From: Octopus sinensis
Lineage: Eukaryota
DNA: 64,000 bases
Direction of reading: 5' to 3'
NCBI RefSeq assembly: GCF_006345805.1
Contig: NC_043003.1
Coordinates: forward strand, 96,348,001 to 96,412,000
Part shown: positions 28,876 to 60,145 of the stretch, one piece after another
Layout of the letters: the number at the start of each line of letters is the position of its first letter
Numbering within the stretch: the stretch's first letter is position 1
The notes under the pieces: generated by a model
The model's input: only the letters and a program-made list of their open reading frames with translations
Database searches by the model: none
Told to the model about the DNA's origin: nothing
Program-made: the position numbers and the translations under genes

Positions 28876-29170
28876 TTATAATATATATATGTTTAAAAAA
28901 AATTAAACAGAAACACAACAAAGGAATGAACCAAAGATTCACACACAAAACATTGACATGCTCTTTCCTCGTCAGTTATCAGCCAAAATATTATTACAAT
29001 TTCATGATTTTAATGATAGTATTGTTCATTTTTGGTGGGGTCAATAGCAAAAAGCTACTGGGAACAGTAAGTAAGCTTTGAGGGCAATGATGCAAACAGG
29101 TACAACACAGATAGTGTGTGTGTGAATATAAATGTAAGTATATAAACAAAATAAAAATACAGTATTTTAT

Positions 29171-29498
29171 TGTGTCTGGGGAGAGTCATTCTCTATAATG
29201 CCTTATCAATTAACACACTCACTGGTTCAATTTCCACTCATTTTTTCTTTTTTTCTAAAATTTTCATTGCTTCTTGCAAGCTCTTTCATAGTCGTTGATT
29301 TTGTCTGTTATCAGAGCTGAGTTCTTTCTTGAAACAAAAAGATCGCTGCTCTGATAACAGATAGAGTCAATCACTATTGAAGAGCTTGCAAGAAGCAATG
29401 AAAATTTTAGAAAAAATAATAAGTGAATGAGTGGAAATTGAACCAGTGAGTGTGTTAATTAATAAGGCATTAAATCAGAATGACTCTCCCCAGACACA
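29171..29498. mobile_element. Fold-back element (about 150-bp arms, 30-nt loop) of inverted Penelope-type pLTR pieces, with a hammerhead-like motif at 29374-29410
   Basis: tgtgtctggggagagtcattct...tcagagc / gctctga...agaatgactctccccagacaca. Motif: cta-TTGAAGA-g-cttgc-aagaa-gcaat-GAAA-at-TT-tag. Same family as 57324-57602. Confidence 0.75.
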
Positions 29499-30033
29499 CA
29501 CAAAAAAAATGCTTCAACAAGAATCGAATCCGTATAAGGAATTCTTGCAAACCAAAAATCCAAATACAAAAACGAAATAAAATATACAATATACAAACAA
29601 AATAAAAGCTGTGCAGCTCTGACACAAGATGTATGTATAAGTATTGCAATGGAAAAAGTGCTGTAGGACTGGAAACAGAAAGTGGACAGAAGGAAAGGTT
29701 GAATAAAAGGTGTAAAAGCAAACCCTTTGTTGGAAGTATAGAAGGAAGTGAGAGACTGAGTGAAAGGTGACTGAACAAATCAGTGGTCAAGTGAAAAAAA
29801 GGAATGGTCATAGATTGTATGGTAGTGAAAGGAGAAAGAAAAATAGTGGTGGAGGACAGAGAAATAGAAAGCAACAGAGAGGTGAGAGAGAGGGTGAAGA
29901 AAGAGATGTCACACAAAAAATTCCTACTGGGTGTAGATGCATAGACAAATTTTTAATTATACGAAAAACTATTGAAGGAAATAGAAATATTAATATTTCT
30001 AAATCTTTCTAAAGGAGACTATGGCAGCAGATC

Positions 30034-30730
30034 ACCAAGCTAACGTGGCAGTCCAGGAAAATAGGACGAATGCTGCTGTTGATTAGCTCCAAGGGGCCAT
30101 CGTCTCTAGCTAGCTATGTGACACACAAACCTCTGTCCATTATAACCTTTGAACAGAGGAGGTCAGCCGCTTCCCCTTGCTGGTCTGGCATCTACAAACT
30201 AGTTTTGGGATATTTGCCCCTTATCAATGTAGAGTAGCCAAACTCAGCAGGCATCACTCATATTTCTAAGTCTCTCTAATAGTTATTGCCAAGCTAACAT
30301 GGCACTCCAGGAAAATAAGACAAATGCTGCCATTGCTTAGCTCCAAGAGGCCATTGCCTCTAGCTAGCTAAGTGACTCACAAACCTGTGTCCATTATAAC
30401 CTCCTTTAGAGAGACTTAGAAATATTACTATTTCTATTTTTGAAGACCAGTGGATATATTCCACCGAATTTAGGTAAATAATCCTTCAAATAGATGGTCA
30501 GCAGCAATGCCTGCTGGGTTCGCCTGCTCTCCGTTGATAAGGGGCAAATACCCCAAAACTAGTTTCTAGATGCCAGTCCAGCAAGGGGAAGCGGCTGACC
30601 TCCCCTGTTCGAAGGTTATAATGGACACAGGTTTGTGTGTCACATAGCTAGCTAAAGACGATGGCCTCTTGGAGCTAATCAATGGCAGCATTTATCCTAT
30701 TTTCCTGGACTGCCATGTTAGCTTGGCGAT
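30034..30730. mobile_element. Direct + inverted repeat complex (about 225-bp unit, 115-bp partial direct copy, inverted full copy) with hammerhead-like motifs at 30191-30233 (-) and 30528-30570 (+)
   Basis: 30034-30258 matches the reverse complement of about 30505-30727; 30288-30402 is a direct partial copy. Motif: tctaca-TTGATAA-gggg-caaata-yccc-AAAA-ctag-TT-tgtaga. Confidence 0.75.
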
Positions 30731-32699
30731 AACAATTAATCTTGAAGGAAAAATAGCTTGAAATTACATATATTTACAGAGTTTTTCAGTTTTATATGCA
30801 CCAAAATAAGTGAAGTTAGGAGCATTGAAAAATAACTCAGTATTAAAGCACATAGCTTTAATCTTTTTCCTACTAGGTGCAATGTCATTTTTAGCAGTAG
30901 GAGAAATTTGGGTGTTTTCCATAATACTGAAAAGGATTTCTTCCATTTTGCAATGAGTGTGTGTCTGTGGATGTAGATAGGTAGATAAATGCAGACATAA
31001 ATATTAAATGTTAGAGTGACATTGGATGGTTCATCGGGAATTGATGGGTGAAAAGACTTCGCTAAGCCCTAATGTCTCTCTTGGTGTGGTTTCAACAGCT
31101 GGATCCCCTTCCTAATAACAACCACTTTACAGAGTGTACTAGATGTCATCATTGTCATCATGATCATTATCATCATCATCATCATCATCAACATTATTGC
31201 CAGCACTAAAGTGATAATGATAATGTTGATGAAGATTATTTGGTTTCTCTCAAGGAAAGAAATGTTGTGTCTAATTCATTGTTTTATTAACGACTGGTCA
31301 ATATTTCCTGCTAAATACTTTCAAACATGTAGTCCATCTAAAGTCATTCCAAGTATTGTATTTAACCAATTGTTTTTCAGTTTTATAAAAATTGTTTTGT
31401 TTGTTCTTCTTCAATATAAATTTATTTGTTTATCTTTATTTGAAAGAAATATCAGTCTATAAGCTTCAAAATCAAATTATGAATTGTTAATATGGTTTTG
31501 TCTTGAATCTATAATCCAGTTTTCCTTGTTTTGTCAACTGTTTACATGGTTACTTCTTTGAAAAAAAAATTTGGAAATATATATATATATTTATTTATAT
31601 ATGTATATATTATATACATACATTGACTTGAAGTTTGCTTATCCTACAGCCAGCTCAAGGCTTGTTGGTGAGACCATCCCCCTCTCTAATTTGGCATGGT
31701 ATGATGCATGTGATAGCTAGTATCTACCTTCACTTAACCCTATGTCCATACTATTGTCCTAGTCGTGAGTTTTTCAATATTTCTATTCCTTCCTTTTTGA
31801 AACTCTTTGAACATCCTGTTGTTTAATATCACCATACTGTAAACCTTTTTCATAATTTTGCAAATGATTTTTTTTTCTTGCTGTTTTTCAAAGTAGAAGA
31901 CCATCCATTACATTTTACAAACAACAGAACTCTATTGAGAAATTAATAATTTTGTTTCCTACTTAAAGTAATTTTACAGTTACAGATTGGGAGTAGCTTG
32001 GTGATTAAGGTGTTGGGATTATTATGATCAGAAAGTTGTGGGTTCAGTTCTTGGAGCAGGCAGTACATTGTGTCTTGGAGCAAACACTTTATTTCCTGTT
32101 GCTTCAGTCTACTCAATTGCATATGAATACCAGGCAAATGCCCTCTCTACCTCCTGCTGGCATATCCTTAATGTGTTGATAGATTCAGGGAGGGCAGGCC
32201 AAAAGGATGTCTGTATCTACTCATGACCACATAGGCACCTACAACAGTTAATAAGAACATGGTATATGCTACCAAGTTATGCTCATTTGTGAATGATGGC
32301 TATACTACCACATTTTAATTATACTTGTGAAGTAGCATGAATAGTAGAGTACAGGGCTAAGTGCCTTTCAATATTTAGTTTCATCCCCCTCTGCTCTGAT
32401 TTCAAATTTCATTGAGATCAACATTGCTTTTAATCATTCCAAGATCAATAAGTACTGTGGTTCAATCAACTGTAACCTACACTGCAAAATATTGGGGACT
32501 ACATTAGTGTAAGAAATTGTTATTATTTTTATCATAGAATCTATATAGTACAGTTTTTAATCACATCCATTTATATTTAGCTTTCAAATTCTACCATTAT
32601 TGGTATTGATTATTGGTACCCCTGGAATTGATAAAACTTACCAGATCCCTCTCCCAATATCTAGGTCTTATGCCTAATTTAGTAATAATAATAATAATA

Positions 32700-54790: not shown

Positions 54791-55666
54791 CAAAAGTCAT
54801 CTCTTACCCACAAATATCAAACATGATAGATTAATTCCCAAATTCTTGAAGTTGTCTTGCTTTTTCCTTCAAGGGTTGCTAATAATTGCTGCTGTTTGTT
54901 TTCTTTCTTTTACAAAGAGAGTAATTTCAAGGAATTAACAACATTGGTTTAATTTAATTATCTCCATTAGCTCATTTTATAGATTTTATTCTTTTTCATA
55001 TTTTAGTCATGTGACTATGGCCATGCTGGGACACCACCTTGATAAATTTATTTCAACCATTTAAAATATTTCAAGTTTTCACCACATTATTTTCAAAAAA
55101 TGTAGTTTGATATAGCTTTGCATGGTGATGACAAAAATGGCATTCATTTTTCCCCGCTAAAAATTAATAATAAAGACGTTACAAGTATTTAAAGTTATGG
55201 AATGATAACCAATAAAAAATTCCCATTGCTGACCTATCAGAAGTTTCAACTATTTATTGTCTTGGAGTTGAGCATACACAATGCATTTTACTTTTAATCT
55301 ACATAATAAGCTCAACGTTTGTGTGTCTGTACATCTATAGGACGAAAAGGAATAGAAAATACATAAAAATAAAGTGTTCTCATGTAAACTTTTACGAGGA
55401 AGATGATGAGCTACATAAAATTTACCTTCTATTGTGATTAGGGGGCTTAAAGGGGGGCAAACACCCCCTGTGAAATTTCAAATACCTCTGATTTCAATGA
55501 AAATAACAACATAATGACTAGGTACTAAATAAAGACGATTTCCAAAATTTCACCATACAATATTATTTAACCACCCTTATTGGGTTTTATAACATGGGAC
55601 AGAGCCCCTTTGAAAGTGCATATACATCCACATATATGTATACATATATATATATATATATATCTG

Positions 55667-56859
55667 ATCATCATCATCATCATCGTTTAACATCCGCTTT
55701 CCATGCTACCATGGGTTGGACGATTTGACTGAGGACTGGCGAACCAGATGGCTGTACCAGGCTCCAATCTTAATCTGGCAGTGTTTCTACAGCTGGATGC
55801 CTTTCCAAACGCCAACCACTCCGTGAATGTAGTGGGTGCTTTTACTTGCCACCAGCACAAGGGCCAGTCAAGCAGTACTGGCAATGGCCACGCTCAAATG
55901 GTATTTTTTTATGTGCCACCTGCATAGGAGCCAATCCAGTGGCACTGGCAACGACCTCACTTGAAAGCTTTTCAGGTGCCACCGACACAAGTGCCAGTAA
56001 GGCGACGCTGGTAACAATCATGCTCAAATGGTGCTTTTTATGTGCCACCAGCATCAAAGCCAGTTAGCCGCTCTGGCAATGATCACGCTCAGATGGTGCT
56101 CTTAGCGCTCCACTAGCAAGGATGCCAGTTATCGAATTTGATTTCGATTTTGATTTCACTTGCCTCAACAGGTCTTCACAAGCAGAGTTTAGTGTCCAAT
56201 GAAGGAAAGGTATGCATAAGTGGGCTGATTACACCCCTGGCATAGGCTGGCCGGGTCTTCTCAAGCACAGCATATTTCCAAAAGTCTCGGTCACTAGTCA
56301 TTGCCTTGGTGAGGCCTAATGTTCAAAGGTCATGCTTCATCACTTCATCCCAGGTCTTCCTGGGTCTACCTCTTCTACAGGTTTCTTCAACTGCTAGGGT
56401 GTGACACTTTTTCACACAGCTGTCCTCATTCATTCGCAACACATGACCATACCAGCACAGTCGTCTCTCTTGCACACCACATCTGATGCTTCTTAAATTA
56501 AATTTTCTCTCAGGGTGCTTACACTCTGTCGTGTATACACTCTGTCGTGTATGCACACTGACATTACACATCCAGCAGAGCATACTGGCTTCATTCATTG
56601 CAAGCTTACGCATGTCCTCAGAAGTCATGTCCCATGTTTCACTGCCATGTAGCATGGCTTTTCGTACACATGCGTCATTCAGTCTACCTTTTACTCTGAG
56701 TGAGAAGCCCTTTGTCACCAGCAGAGGTAAGAGCTCTCTGAACTTTGCCCAGGTTGTTCTTATTCTAGCAGCTACACTTTCAACGCACCCTCAACCGCAA
56801 GGTAACGGAAGCTATCAACTACTTCTAGTTTTTCTCCCTGGAAAGTGGCGGAAGTTGTT
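55667..56859 (-). mobile_element. 5'-truncated RTE-clade LINE: RT C-terminus, 3' UTR and (GAT)n tail
   Basis: GEKLEVVDSFRYL..ARIRTTWAKFRELLPLL; ORF 56323-56718 MLHGSETW..RRLCWYGHVLRM..RGRPRKTW. Confidence 0.9.
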
Positions 56860-56860
56860 T

Positions 56861-56922
<62 letters not shown>

Positions 56923-57047
56923 AGTAATAAGTATCACAGTTTTATCACGCTAGGCCACTTGGTGTTTTAAATTGGTGTTATTAATTAATATTCAATTTTT
57001 TCCCCCTTATTGTGATTTTTTATATATATAGATATATATATGCATAT

Positions 57048-57213
57048 ATCATCATCATCATCATCATCATTTAACGTCCGCTTTCCATGCTAGCATGGGT
57101 TGGACGGTTCAACTGGGGTCTGGGGAGCCCGAAAGCTGCACCAGTCCAGTCAGATCTGGCAGTGTTTCTACAGCTGGATGCCCTTCCTAACGCCAACCAC
57201 TCCGAGAGTGTAG

Positions 57214-57214
<1 letters not shown>
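57048..57214 (-). mobile_element. RTE LINE 3' tail fragment
   Basis: Matches 55667-55830 and the reverse complement of 63190-63347. Confidence 0.8.
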
Positions 57215-57305
<91 letters not shown>

Positions 57306-57323
57306 TATATATATATATATATA

Positions 57324-57602
57324 TATACTGTTGTATCTAGGGAGAGTCACTCTCTTCTGGCACCCTACAACTCAACACACTCACCAGTAAAACTTCCACC
57401 CATTTCCCTGCTATTCCTCCAAAACTCCTACTGTGTCCCACAACCCTTTCAATAGTTTTGAAAGTCAAAACTATTGTAAAGGTTGCAAGACACAACAAAA
57501 ATTTTAGAAAATTAAAAAGAAACAAGTGGAAACTCCAGCGGTGAGTGTGTTAAATTATAAGGCACCAAAAGAGAATGACTCTCCCCAGACACAACAGTAT
57601 AT
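57324..57602. mobile_element. Fold-back Penelope-pLTR-like element (about 138-bp arms, 3-nt loop) with hammerhead-like motif at 57471-57507; left arm T>C hypermutated
   Basis: Centre caatagttttga-aag-tcaaaactattg; same family as 29171-29498. Confidence 0.8.
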
Positions 57603-57661
57603 GCTTCAACACACAAACTCACATAAAGAATCTTGCAAACCAAATCTAAAGACGAAATATA

Positions 57662-58183
57662 TTGGGTTGTCCAGAAAGTTCATGCCGATTTTTAAAGGAA
57701 AGAAAAAGGTCAATAAATACTTGCCATTACATTTTTAATCAACCAAATATGAACCATTTTGTAGCACAATACGTCTCCATCTTTCCTTTAACTTGAAAAT
57801 ACCCTCTTCCCAGAATTGAGGTGGTTTCATGGCAACAAATTCATCAAGGTATCTTTTTACTTCATCCAAGGAATTGAAATTTTTACCATTAAGACTATTC
57901 TGCAGAGACCTGAATAAGTGGAAATTCGAAGGAGCAATATCTGGTGAATATGGAGGGTGAAGCAATTTTTGTCTGGTTCCCAAAGCATCAAATGCCAAAA
58001 ATGAACTTTCTTATATTCCATTTTAAAGGGTTACAGAATTAACACAGGTTATAGGAACATAAATCTTCCACGAAAAGATAGCTTAAACTGTGCTCTATAT
58101 GGAGGTGTAGTCAAATCCTATTTTATGGACTCAACCATGTTTCTAAAATAAGTCGAAACGTAAGCTACTACTTTCCAGACAAC

Positions 58184-58187
<4 letters not shown>
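57662..58187 (-). mobile_element. Internally deleted mariner (DD34D-type) element with both TIRs and TA TSD
   Basis: TA|ttgggttgtccagaaagt ... actttccagacaacccaa|TA. N-terminal MEYKKVHFWHLMLWE joined out of frame to C-terminal HPPYSPDIAPSNFHLFRSLQNSL..GIFKLKERW..NGSY. Confidence 0.9.
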
Positions 58188-58227
<40 letters not shown>

Positions 58228-58229
58228 TA

Positions 58230-58445
58230 CGAGGTGGGTGGGGTTGAAAAGTTCTTGGCTTTGAGTAAAAGAAAATATAGGTGGATCAGTTACTTAAGAT
58301 TTTATTCAGCATATTCCATTCTCAGACTCGCATGCTTATTGCAGTGACCCTTCAATTTTTCTAATCCCTGTAAAAGAACTCAGAAGGTTGGGACTCCAAC
58401 CACACTTTTCATGATACCCTTAAAGTCAGGAACTTTTCAGAACCT
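58230..58445. mobile_element. Mariner-type MITE/terminal fragment
   Basis: TA|CGAGG..GGGGTTGAAAAGTTC start and a partly complementary ggaacttttcag..cctc end. Confidence 0.5.
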
Positions 58446-58459
58446 CTTGTGTATATATG

Positions 58460-58655
58460 TTCTTTTATTCTTTTACTTGTTTCAGTCATTTGACTGTGGC
58501 CATGCTTTTAGTCAAACAAATCAACCCCAGGATTTATTCTTTGTAAGCCTAGTACTCATTCCATCGGTCTCCCTTGCAGAACTGCAAATGTATGGAAAAC
58601 ATAAACACACCATCAGTTGGTAATCGATGGTGGGGGACAAACACAGACAGACAAA
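58460..58655 (-). mobile_element. SINE family A 3' half
   Basis: tcttttacttgtttcagtcatttgactgtggccatgc...ggggacaaacacagac. Confidence 0.7.
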
Positions 58656-58679
58656 CATACAATGTAATTATTCTTTTTC

Positions 58680-59680
58680 ATTCCAGGTGCCATTATATTA
58701 AACATTTGCAAAGAGTAACCATGCCTTGCACAAAAAATTCAGCAGAACTGTCAGATTTTCAAAGCAGTCATATTGTTGGGCAATCTGAGGCTGGTCTTTG
58801 CCAGCGAAAAATTGCCGAAATTCTTCAAATTCCTTTTGCTACTGTAAATAGAATTATAGTGCAATTCAAAAGCCAAGGAAAGAATCAACAAATTCTCATC
58901 CCAGCTGACCTGGGACTTGGAAATGAAGCGTCACTGTTTGAAGAGAATTGTGAAAAACGAACCCCGTTAAAAGGCTTCTGATATTGCAAAACAGCTAGAA
59001 GTTAGTCCAAGAACGTATGTTACATATCTGCATAAGCTTAGATATTATAGAAAAGCCGCTAGAAGAAAACCTCTCCTTCAACCAATTAATATCATGAAAA
59101 GAAAGAAATGAGGAGATGCCAGAGAAATCCAATTCATTTTAGGATAGAGTGATTTTCTCAGATGAACCCAGATTTGCATTATTTTCAGACAGTAGACGTG
59201 TTTGGATCGGGAGGCTTCCCAATCAAGAATTTGATTTGAGACAACTCCAACCAACTGTGAAACATGGTGGTATCTCTGTGATGGTATGGGAGCTGTCATC
59301 AGCAATGGCTGTTCTGAGCTGATTGAATGTGTTGGAACCATAAACTCTGAAAAATACATTCAAATACTTAAGCAAGGACTACTTCCGATGTATTCACGTA
59401 GTACCATAACGAAAAATGAGTTTTTATTCATGGAAGATGGGCTCCATGCCATACAGCAAAAAGGAATTAACAATGGCTGACTGAAAATGAGATGAAAAAG
59501 CTTACTTGGCCCAACCAATCTCTTTACATGAACCCAATTGAAAATCTTTGGAGTATATGAGATAGAGCTATACGAAAAACTCGACAGAAACCTAAAGCTG
59601 AAGGTGAATTCTTTTGATTGTTGAATGAAAAGTGGGCAGAAATTCCACAAAGCTCATCAGTTCAATGCCTAAAAGACACG
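58680..59680 (+). mobile_element. Tc1-like transposase pseudogene (near-full-length coding region, frameshifted)
   Basis: ATG at 58721: ELSDFQSSHIVG..CQRKIAEILQIPFATVNRII (HTH); ARRKPLL; VIFSDEPRF; [13 protein letters not shown]; GTINSEKYIQIL; FMEDG; WPNQSLYMNPIENLW. Confidence 0.9.
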
Positions 59681-59689
59681 ACATGTTGG

Positions 59690-60139
59690 GGGGGATTTGC
59701 CAGGGCAGGGCCAATCCATAACATTACATGACATGTCAGATTAGTCAGAGGGGCAGACCCAATTCATAACATTACATGACATGTCAGATTAGCCAGAGGG
59801 GCAGACACAAACCAAAACATTACATGACATGTCAGATTCGCCAGAGGGGTAGACCCAATCCATAACATTACATGACATGTCAGATTTGCCAGAGGGGCAG
59901 AGTCAATGCATAACATTACATGACATGTCAGATTAGCCAGGGGGGAGACCCAATCCATAACATTACATGACATGTCAGATTCGCCAAAGGGGTAGATTCA
60001 ACTCATAACATTACATGACATGTCAGATTAGCCAGGGGGGCAGACACAACCCATAACATTACATGACATGTCAGATTCGCCAGAGGGGTAGACCCAATCC
60101 ATAACATTACGTGACATGTCGGAGATTCGCCAGAGGGGC
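59690..60139. repeat. Minisatellite, 48-bp unit x about 9
   Basis: Consensus ccaatccataacattacatgacatgtcagattcgccagaggggyagac; units at 59711, 59759, 59807, 59855 and onward. Confidence 0.9.
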
Positions 60140-60145
60140 ATATAT

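Follow-up and report, generated by a model that had tools for sequence, protein, structure and literature searches.

Organization of the composite element

The window, that is, the whole 64,000-nucleotide stretch analyzed here, contains a long hairpin that sits in a composite element of ∼4.5–5 kb, whose minus strand ends in a LINE 3′ tail (Table 1). Read on that strand, the parts are in order a tandem array with a period of ∼48 bp, a Tc1-like, a MITE-like and a Mariner-like piece, the hairpin, microsatellites, and a LINE 3′ end with its (ATG)n tail. Sequence common to the copies of this element spans 55665–60140. Copies whose hairpins carry the T>C changes described below are called edited for brevity; the array is where the window copy and 11 other edited copies end on the right, and in some the common sequence runs up to ∼0.7 kb further. 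Copies of the LINE family carry a Pfam RVT_1 match upstream (E = 6e-13 in L131). Like the Mariner-like fragment, the LINE C-terminal fragment has no Pfam match; by its motifs the LINE may belong to the RTE clade, and the transposon remnant is called Mariner-like for a motif in the ORF at 57735–58010.

Table 1. Parts of the composite element and the related palindrome in the window
Feature	Position	Strand	Remark
LINE 3′ end: RT C-terminal ORF (56323–56790), 3′ UTR, (ATG)n tail	55665–56860	−	
(CT)n/(TA)n microsatellites between LINE part and hairpin	56861–57322		
Second short LINE 3′ end nested in the microsatellites	about 57021–57214		window copy only
Whole hairpin	57323–57602	−	minus strand predicted to form one almost fully paired stem
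Hairpin left arm (3′ arm in minus-strand RNA)	57323–57461	−	23 T>C on plus strand versus family majority
Hairpin right arm (5′ arm in minus-strand RNA)	57462–57602	−	5 T>C on plus strand in window copy, 6–11 in sister copies
Unpaired extension of hairpin repeat family	57603–57642		1 doubtful T>C in 39 called bases
Mariner-like transposon remnant	57643–58186	−	no Pfam match
MITE-like piece	58232–58445	−	window copy unedited; second T>C cluster in 7 other copies
Tc1-like transposase remnant	58700–59680	+	Pfam HTH_SB E = 6e-6, below curated cut-off
Tandem array, period about 48 bp	59690–60140		period by eye and from match offsets
Sister palindrome, unedited, from the hairpin repeat family and outside the composite	29171–29498		78–81% alike

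The array is rare (66 candidates). The Tc1-like part and the array also occur without the hairpin, at L153, L156, L158, L168, L170, L173, L176, L180 and L192, some with inverted pieces. In L093 (3767–4000) and L094 (6218–6570, both in window orientation) the composite breaks off at 58564, where an inverted piece of the array follows; the two are 99% alike there and represent a recent duplication, with later insertions in L094.

One-strand differences between the hairpin arms

A computed alignment of the left arm (57323–57461) with the reverse complement of the right arm (57462–57602) gives T>C at 22 of 62 aligned T and G>A at 10 of 23 G, together with four transversions and neither C>T nor A>G. 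The 22:0 ratio gives a binomial p = 5e-7, and comparison of the left arm with the 29171 element likewise yields T>C at 20 of 56 T. Where both neighbors are aligned, T before C is altered at none of nine sites, versus 22 of 53 other T (Fisher p = 0.02). Four of the ten apparent G>A are right-arm T>C, and the remaining six are left-arm G>A, four of them at CpG or new-CpG sites.

Because the 29171 element and the majority of 41 ordinary arms of the hairpin repeat family carry T at the changed sites, C is the derived state. The repeat family is abundant (2326 candidates, 40 of them scored), and its 41 ordinary arms show a normal substitution spectrum, with at most four A>G and at most three T>C per arm. 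These results bear out much of an earlier note made from this DNA sequence by hand count, which had reported about 20–23 T>C between the arms, essentially no C>T, a derived C, unchanged T before C and CpG decay after a new C. Its neighbor bias persists in the computed alignment of the arms and, more strongly, in the pooled data below (p = 1.5e-6). Its approximately six G>A compare with ten in the alignment, of which four are right-arm T>C.

The predicted fold differs greatly between the strands: −187.7 kcal/mol for the minus strand versus −106.8 kcal/mol for the plus strand. On the minus strand 32 of the 36 arm differences are G·U-compatible, so that this strand is predicted to keep a single stem. 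Three right-arm sites near 57555–57558 are T in the window copy and C in 21–23 of 23–24 sister copies; the window copy either descends from a less edited source or was converted at these sites.

A subfamily of edited copies

The C-rich arm and the right junction served as queries in the search for copies, which were compared over 10-kb stretches around the matches; 40 candidates were scored for each query, so the counts are lower bounds. At least 30 composite hairpin segments were recovered: 22 full edited hairpins, four with a truncated left arm and an edited right arm, and four unedited segments (L116–L119). The 22 full hairpins represent 20 independent ones, since L094 duplicates L093 and in L107 a gap separates the two members of a tandem pair. 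This leaves at least 24 edited copies that are independent, with T>C on the plus strand in both arms, equivalent to A>G on the minus strand. Per full hairpin (n = 22) the left arm carries 15–27 T>C and the right arm 5–11, with 0–4 A>G; the right arms of the four partial copies are also altered. The four unedited segments have 0–3 T>C per intact arm. Alteration of both arms on one strand matches the expectation for editing of a folded minus-strand RNA.

A palindrome serves as its own control. Transitions at a frequency of at least 25% affect 30 of 79 T sites versus 1 of 76 A sites (p = 1.4e-9), and at a frequency of at least 50%, 25 T sites versus one A site. This comparison used 20 copies per arm after dropping two duplicates, with the homopolymer tract and the ends masked. 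One of the T sites and the single A site are two faces of the same family polymorphism, and the site-level p-values are indicative, as sites are linked by the ancestry of the copies. The edited subfamily shares about 25 near-fixed edits.

The C-rich arm also has matches in DNA runs, of which X3 may come from close to the source of the assembly. At a likeness of at least 88%, contigs from three DNA runs with differing organism labels (X2, X3 and X9) match the left arm, covering five of five bins in X2 and X3 and four of five in X9; these contigs include paralogs, and none spans the whole stretch. In the DNA-run contigs position 57371 shows no T at depths of 475 and 373. A single RNA run of another organism label, without matched DNA, covers the left arm at a depth of 0–9 in both directions. 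At L107 (G000:C19, about 50.778–50.786 Mb) two near-identical composites are separated by 4.6 kb that includes a run of N, and the pair may be an assembly duplication.

Confinement of the changes to the duplex

Comparison of the unedited composite copies with the majority of the edited copies places the changes on one branch. In the hairpin we find 30 T>C in 95 T (two of them doubtful), one A>G, one G>A and no C>T; an APOBEC-type sense-strand G>A cluster is absent from the hairpin, with no fixed C>T on the plus strand. The adjacent Mariner-like part, a negative control, has one T>C in 163 T and no other change in 531 called bases. The LINE part, compared with 28 family loci, has one T>C in 285 T. 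Between 58235 and 59680 the spectrum is mixed (10 T>C, 7 A>G, 7 G>A and 3 C>T). Judged from the genomic copies, the hairpin carries changes of the kind expected from ADAR: A>G on one strand, in both arms, limited to what would be double-stranded RNA.

At 58549–58600, L117 and L118 differ by seven T>C in ∼52 bp from L116 and the edited copies. The vicinity also has several G>A and transversions, and the region is possibly an earlier, third editing patch.

A screen for skewed inverted repeats in ∼1.06 Mb of redundant and biased sequence gave 355 alignments, of which 89 were skewed. The composite hairpin accounts repeatedly for 84 of these; four are low-complexity noise (three in L230, which were checked, and probably a TA-rich one in L108) and one is an unpolarized case. 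This unrelated old inverted repeat, in L057 (1722–1945 and 2725–2949), has a 19:2 skew of transition mismatches (8 C/T, 11 A/G).

Neighbor context and candidate enzymes

ADARs prefer 5′ neighbors in the order U>A>C>G. On the minus strand, with the hairpin and the second cluster (see next section) pooled, changed sites make up 16 of 28 adenosines preceded by U, 28 of 64 preceded by A, 2 of 26 preceded by C and 3 of 26 preceded by G (U/A versus C/G, p = 1.5e-6; G versus the rest, p = 0.006). Each cluster shows the U/A preference separately, the hairpin at 24 of 51 versus 4 of 26 (p = 0.007, with p = 0.002–0.007 across variants) and the second cluster at 19 of 40 versus 2 of 27 (p = 0.0005). In the hairpin alone the contrast of 5′ G with the rest is weak: p = 0.05 or 0.19 depending on one ancestral base, and p = 0.35 in a separate test. 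The 5′-neighbor bias of these genomic changes is ADAR-like. On the 3′ side, the hairpin shows no preference for G (6 of 14 versus 24 of 65, p = 0.76, small numbers) and no enrichment of A (11 of 36). The available text of PMC5625713 gives upstream G depletion as a shared ADAR motif and a downstream-A preference for invertebrate editing.

Genome G000 has 17 matches to the A_deamin profile (PF02137) above the cut-off, at several loci. This profile also takes in ADAT and ADAD proteins and does not separate them from ADAR. At G000:C2502:263721-264758 there is a full-length, intron-free match with six stops, which may represent a processed pseudogene derived from a deaminase gene.

A second cluster and signs of repeated rounds

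A second cluster of T>C lies at 58250–58440 in seven copies, each with 11–21 changes, for a total of 116 T>C versus 2 A>G. The same region in 15 other composite-type copies, including that of the window, has 13 T>C versus 6 A>G. Gene conversion from free MITE copies was considered as a source and rejected: other alleles of the free MITE family number 9 of 111, six of them at one CpG site.

The changes form three patterns with a common core: A (L103, L095, L092 and L106), B (L110 and L186) and C (L115). Sites 58266 and 58276 link A with B, and sites 58290, 58300, 58303 and 58357 link A with C, making the patterns partly incompatible. Either separate transcripts were edited at the same hot sites, or rounds were nested and two back-mutations followed; either reading requires more than one event. 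L115 has six private T>C (Poisson p = 3e-4), and the group A copies have extra hairpin C's in common. In the hairpin, the low-frequency changes common to several copies comprise 13 T>C sites versus 2 A>G sites.

Within the 10-kb loci around the edited copies we found no inverted copy that could pair with the second cluster, and a test for A·C mismatches gave p = 0.06. The tree of the flanks is star-like with low support and included the second-cluster columns, so the order of rounds is not given by the tree. Its terminal branches are mostly 0.02–0.04 non-CpG substitutions per site. The available text of PMC13282606 provides a scale of 0.065 for 18 My, on which the edited copies would be very roughly 6–11 My old if the host group is assumed to apply.

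Evidence on a LINE-mediated route

Relative to the LINE 3′ end at the close of the composite, the A>G changes are in sense orientation. An adjoining LINE part is present in 19 of 24 edited copies versus none of the four unedited ones. The LINE tail is reached by 12 of the 24 edited copies that are independent; seven end inside the LINE part and five lack an adjoining LINE. In the tail-less copies the upstream view covered 1.7–2.6 kb, and a later insertion or deletion may lie behind the loss. Decay may explain the missing tails, because ordinary LINE copies often stop short as well (10 of 28 reach the tail region, and four stop near 56140, as do two composite copies) and large internal deletions are common.

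The right (5′) ends lie at 57697, 57800, 58068, 58199, 58564 (followed by the inverted array) and 59171, with twelve within the array and several beyond it. This ladder matches the expectation for 5′ truncation of a minus-strand RNA, as does the inverted 5′ piece of one lineage (L093/L094) for 5′ inversion; later deletions could mimic such a ladder. A search for target-site duplications (TSDs) in 21 copies gave nothing convincing, only (TA)n or chance matches, and several ends lie in (TA)n. Splicing was considered as proof of an RNA step and set aside; among eight internal deletions one is ambiguous and none is convincing.

Composite or 5′-transduced elements mobilized by LINEs are known, with an SVA-like architecture. 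The present element resembles them in that its LINE-type 3′ end is preceded by unrelated repeats and a tandem array, in its variable 5′ ends and in the inverted 5′ piece. Unlike SVA-type composites, it has no TSDs that we could find, half of its copies are tail-less and its parts include DNA-transposon debris.

Proposed mechanism and alternatives

We think it probable that an ADAR-hyperedited RNA was retrotransposed in the germline by a LINE RT, that the edited master was amplified, and that descendants were re-edited in later cycles. We infer the enzyme and the RNA step from the spectrum, strand, confinement and context of the changes, and the germline setting as well. Minus-strand transcription would have run from nested transposon debris, with its unedited palindrome, into a LINE 3′ end lying downstream. 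ADAR would then have converted roughly one adenosine in three to inosine across the two arms, and reverse transcription, reading I as G, would have produced the master copy from which about 25 near-fixed edits derive. This master would have founded the subfamily, some descendants being re-edited later at extra hairpin sites and in the second cluster (58250–58440). The copies would since have aged normally, with CpG decay at the new C's.

The earlier note had proposed, for the window's hairpin, an ADAR-edited RNA that was retrotransposed. Of its proposal the one-strand A>G, the ADAR-like bias and a reverse-transcription route, which the LINE-sense orientation fits, are supported; the single hyper-edited copy has given way to a subfamily in which at least 24 copies are independent and the single altered arm to two arms altered on the same strand, and a hammerhead with a destroyed core finds neither an Rfam match nor a core motif at the hairpins. 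The note had also called for the bases to be confirmed with independent genomic reads, to which the contigs of three runs that match the arm (paralogs included) speak, and had counted an ordinary subfamily of C-rich copies as evidence against editing. Many C-rich copies do exist, yet the subfamily is not ordinary, because its defining changes are almost all T>C and do not extend beyond the duplex, and more clusters were added later.

Four other explanations were weighed. Deamination of adenosines on DNA or on an RNA:DNA hybrid, by ADAR or an ADAT-like enzyme acting on a folded single strand and followed by spread by any route, would leave an identical one-strand A>G pattern. In model substrates ADARs can act on the DNA strand of hybrids, according to the available text of PMC12925331, and the absence of TSDs and of a LINE tail in half of the copies fits spread by another route. 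We nonetheless regard this explanation as unlikely: the edited strand is the LINE sense strand, and hence the RNA template and not the first cDNA; the changes end at the duplex, whereas a hybrid would span the whole element; and spontaneous single-strand damage would give mostly C>T on that strand, yet a single fixed G>A is seen on the plus strand.

Slightly less likely still is an A>G burst produced by RT misincorporation or nucleotide-pool bias on a strong hairpin, with no deaminase involved. Such errors are inherently strand-specific and would need only the retrotransposition step, but they leave unexplained why one substitution type affects about a third of the sites, why 5′ U/A is favored over C/G in two separate clusters, and why the second cluster lies in a stretch without a long hairpin.

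Ordinary mutation could also have combined with selection for the stem of the minus-strand RNA, where G·U is tolerated, as the DNA palindrome broke up. The G·U-compatible differences and the strand disparity in folding energy agree with such selection, and one unrelated inverted repeat has a 19:2 skew too. Selection would, however, accept plus-strand G>A equally, the commoner mutation, whereas 30 T>C versus one G>A were fixed; the adjacent 531 bp barely changed on the same branch, and the second cluster has no stem to preserve. The spectrum already largely refutes this explanation, and we consider it very improbable. A sequencing, assembly or RNA-polishing artifact beside the (TA)n run has a negligible probability: long (TA)n runs do flank the arm and no contig spans the whole locus, but the same C's recur on many contigs, at 24 loci that are independent of one another, where new C's have since undergone CpG decay. 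Contigs of three DNA runs, each with its own organism label, have them too, which excludes an artifact at the family level.

Relation to known editing of retroelements

The closest precedent is in avian retroviruses. The available text of PMC12925331 describes ADAR-type A-to-G hypermutation in Rous-associated virus as well as avian leukosis virus, where, as here, sense-strand A>G is concentrated in an inverted repeat and fixed in DNA by reverse transcription. The edited fraction of A is near 50% in the avian retroviral inverted repeat versus about 30–40% here. Unlike those viruses, the present element is a non-LTR, non-coding composite that is fixed in the host genome in at least 24 copies and was apparently re-edited later.

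Endogenous LTR retrotransposons show DNA editing of the APOBEC G>A type, in a screen of LTR elements in which invertebrates were at noise level (PMC4866542, in the text available); its main text has no mention of ADAR. The likeness to these elements lies in strand-biased clusters of one substitution with a neighbor motif in genomic copies (PMC4866542, same text). The difference lies in the A>G change, in a substrate that was likely dsRNA before reverse transcription, and in the restriction to duplex parts. At the level of the transcriptome, the available text of PMC5625713 ranks octopus and a frog, the latter with a palindromic repeat, highest among animals for A-to-I hyper-editing of repeat dsRNA. 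Our case shares the long duplex substrate and the upstream G depletion; unlike that RNA-only editing, the pattern here is in genomic DNA and lacks the downstream-A preference.

The available text of PMC4982230 calls a part for ADAR in subfamily evolution undetermined but logical. A search of the open-licence literature turned up no account of ADAR edits that had been fixed in the germline and amplified in a non-LTR element, and the available texts of PMC8466645, PMC9599045, PMC5974252, PMC2873906 and PMC13282606 contain none. A precedent is thus known for retroviruses, and the germline non-LTR case seems new with respect to this literature.

Nearly all the changes that define this composite subfamily are A>G in a duplex, and its unedited relatives and flanks act as built-in controls. 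If the proposed mechanism is correct, edits made in RNA can be inherited, retroposon RNA encounters ADAR in the germline, and mobilization survives editing. We lean, with less confidence than for the locus itself, toward a broader picture in which germline ADAR hyper-editing is written back by LINE retrotransposition over successive cycles. Editing would then found and diversify retroposon subfamilies, old copies would form a dated record of ADAR site preference, and many more such families would be expected. The G·U skew of palindromes, polarized by strand, offers a simple genome screen for them.

Hammerhead motifs and other forms of the hairpin family

The term ‘hammerhead strand’ is ambiguous in a palindrome, and here the LINE tail fixes the strand. 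Rfam hammerhead models have no match in the window at the gathering score, none in either hairpin at E ≤ 10, and none at E ≤ 1 among the best 150 of 163 matches at 10 family loci, although minimal variants could be missed by these scans. Matches to miRNA families were discounted as generic hairpin matches, all below the gathering score. No CTGAnGA core lies near either hairpin, the one at 28969 being outside the element. At 28960–28975 the minus strand reads CTGACGA followed by GGAAA, ∼200 bp from the 29171 palindrome, with no Rfam hammerhead match at E ≤ 10.

Members of the hairpin family (L012, L029, L054, L057 and others) take the form of single arms, tight palindromes with varied centers, and inverted pairs ∼0.9 kb apart. 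The extension of the family is on one side only, and candidate classes are a Penelope-like end or a foldback element. A second long inverted repeat lies near the sister element at 30031–30738, with 224-nt arms that are 91% complementary.
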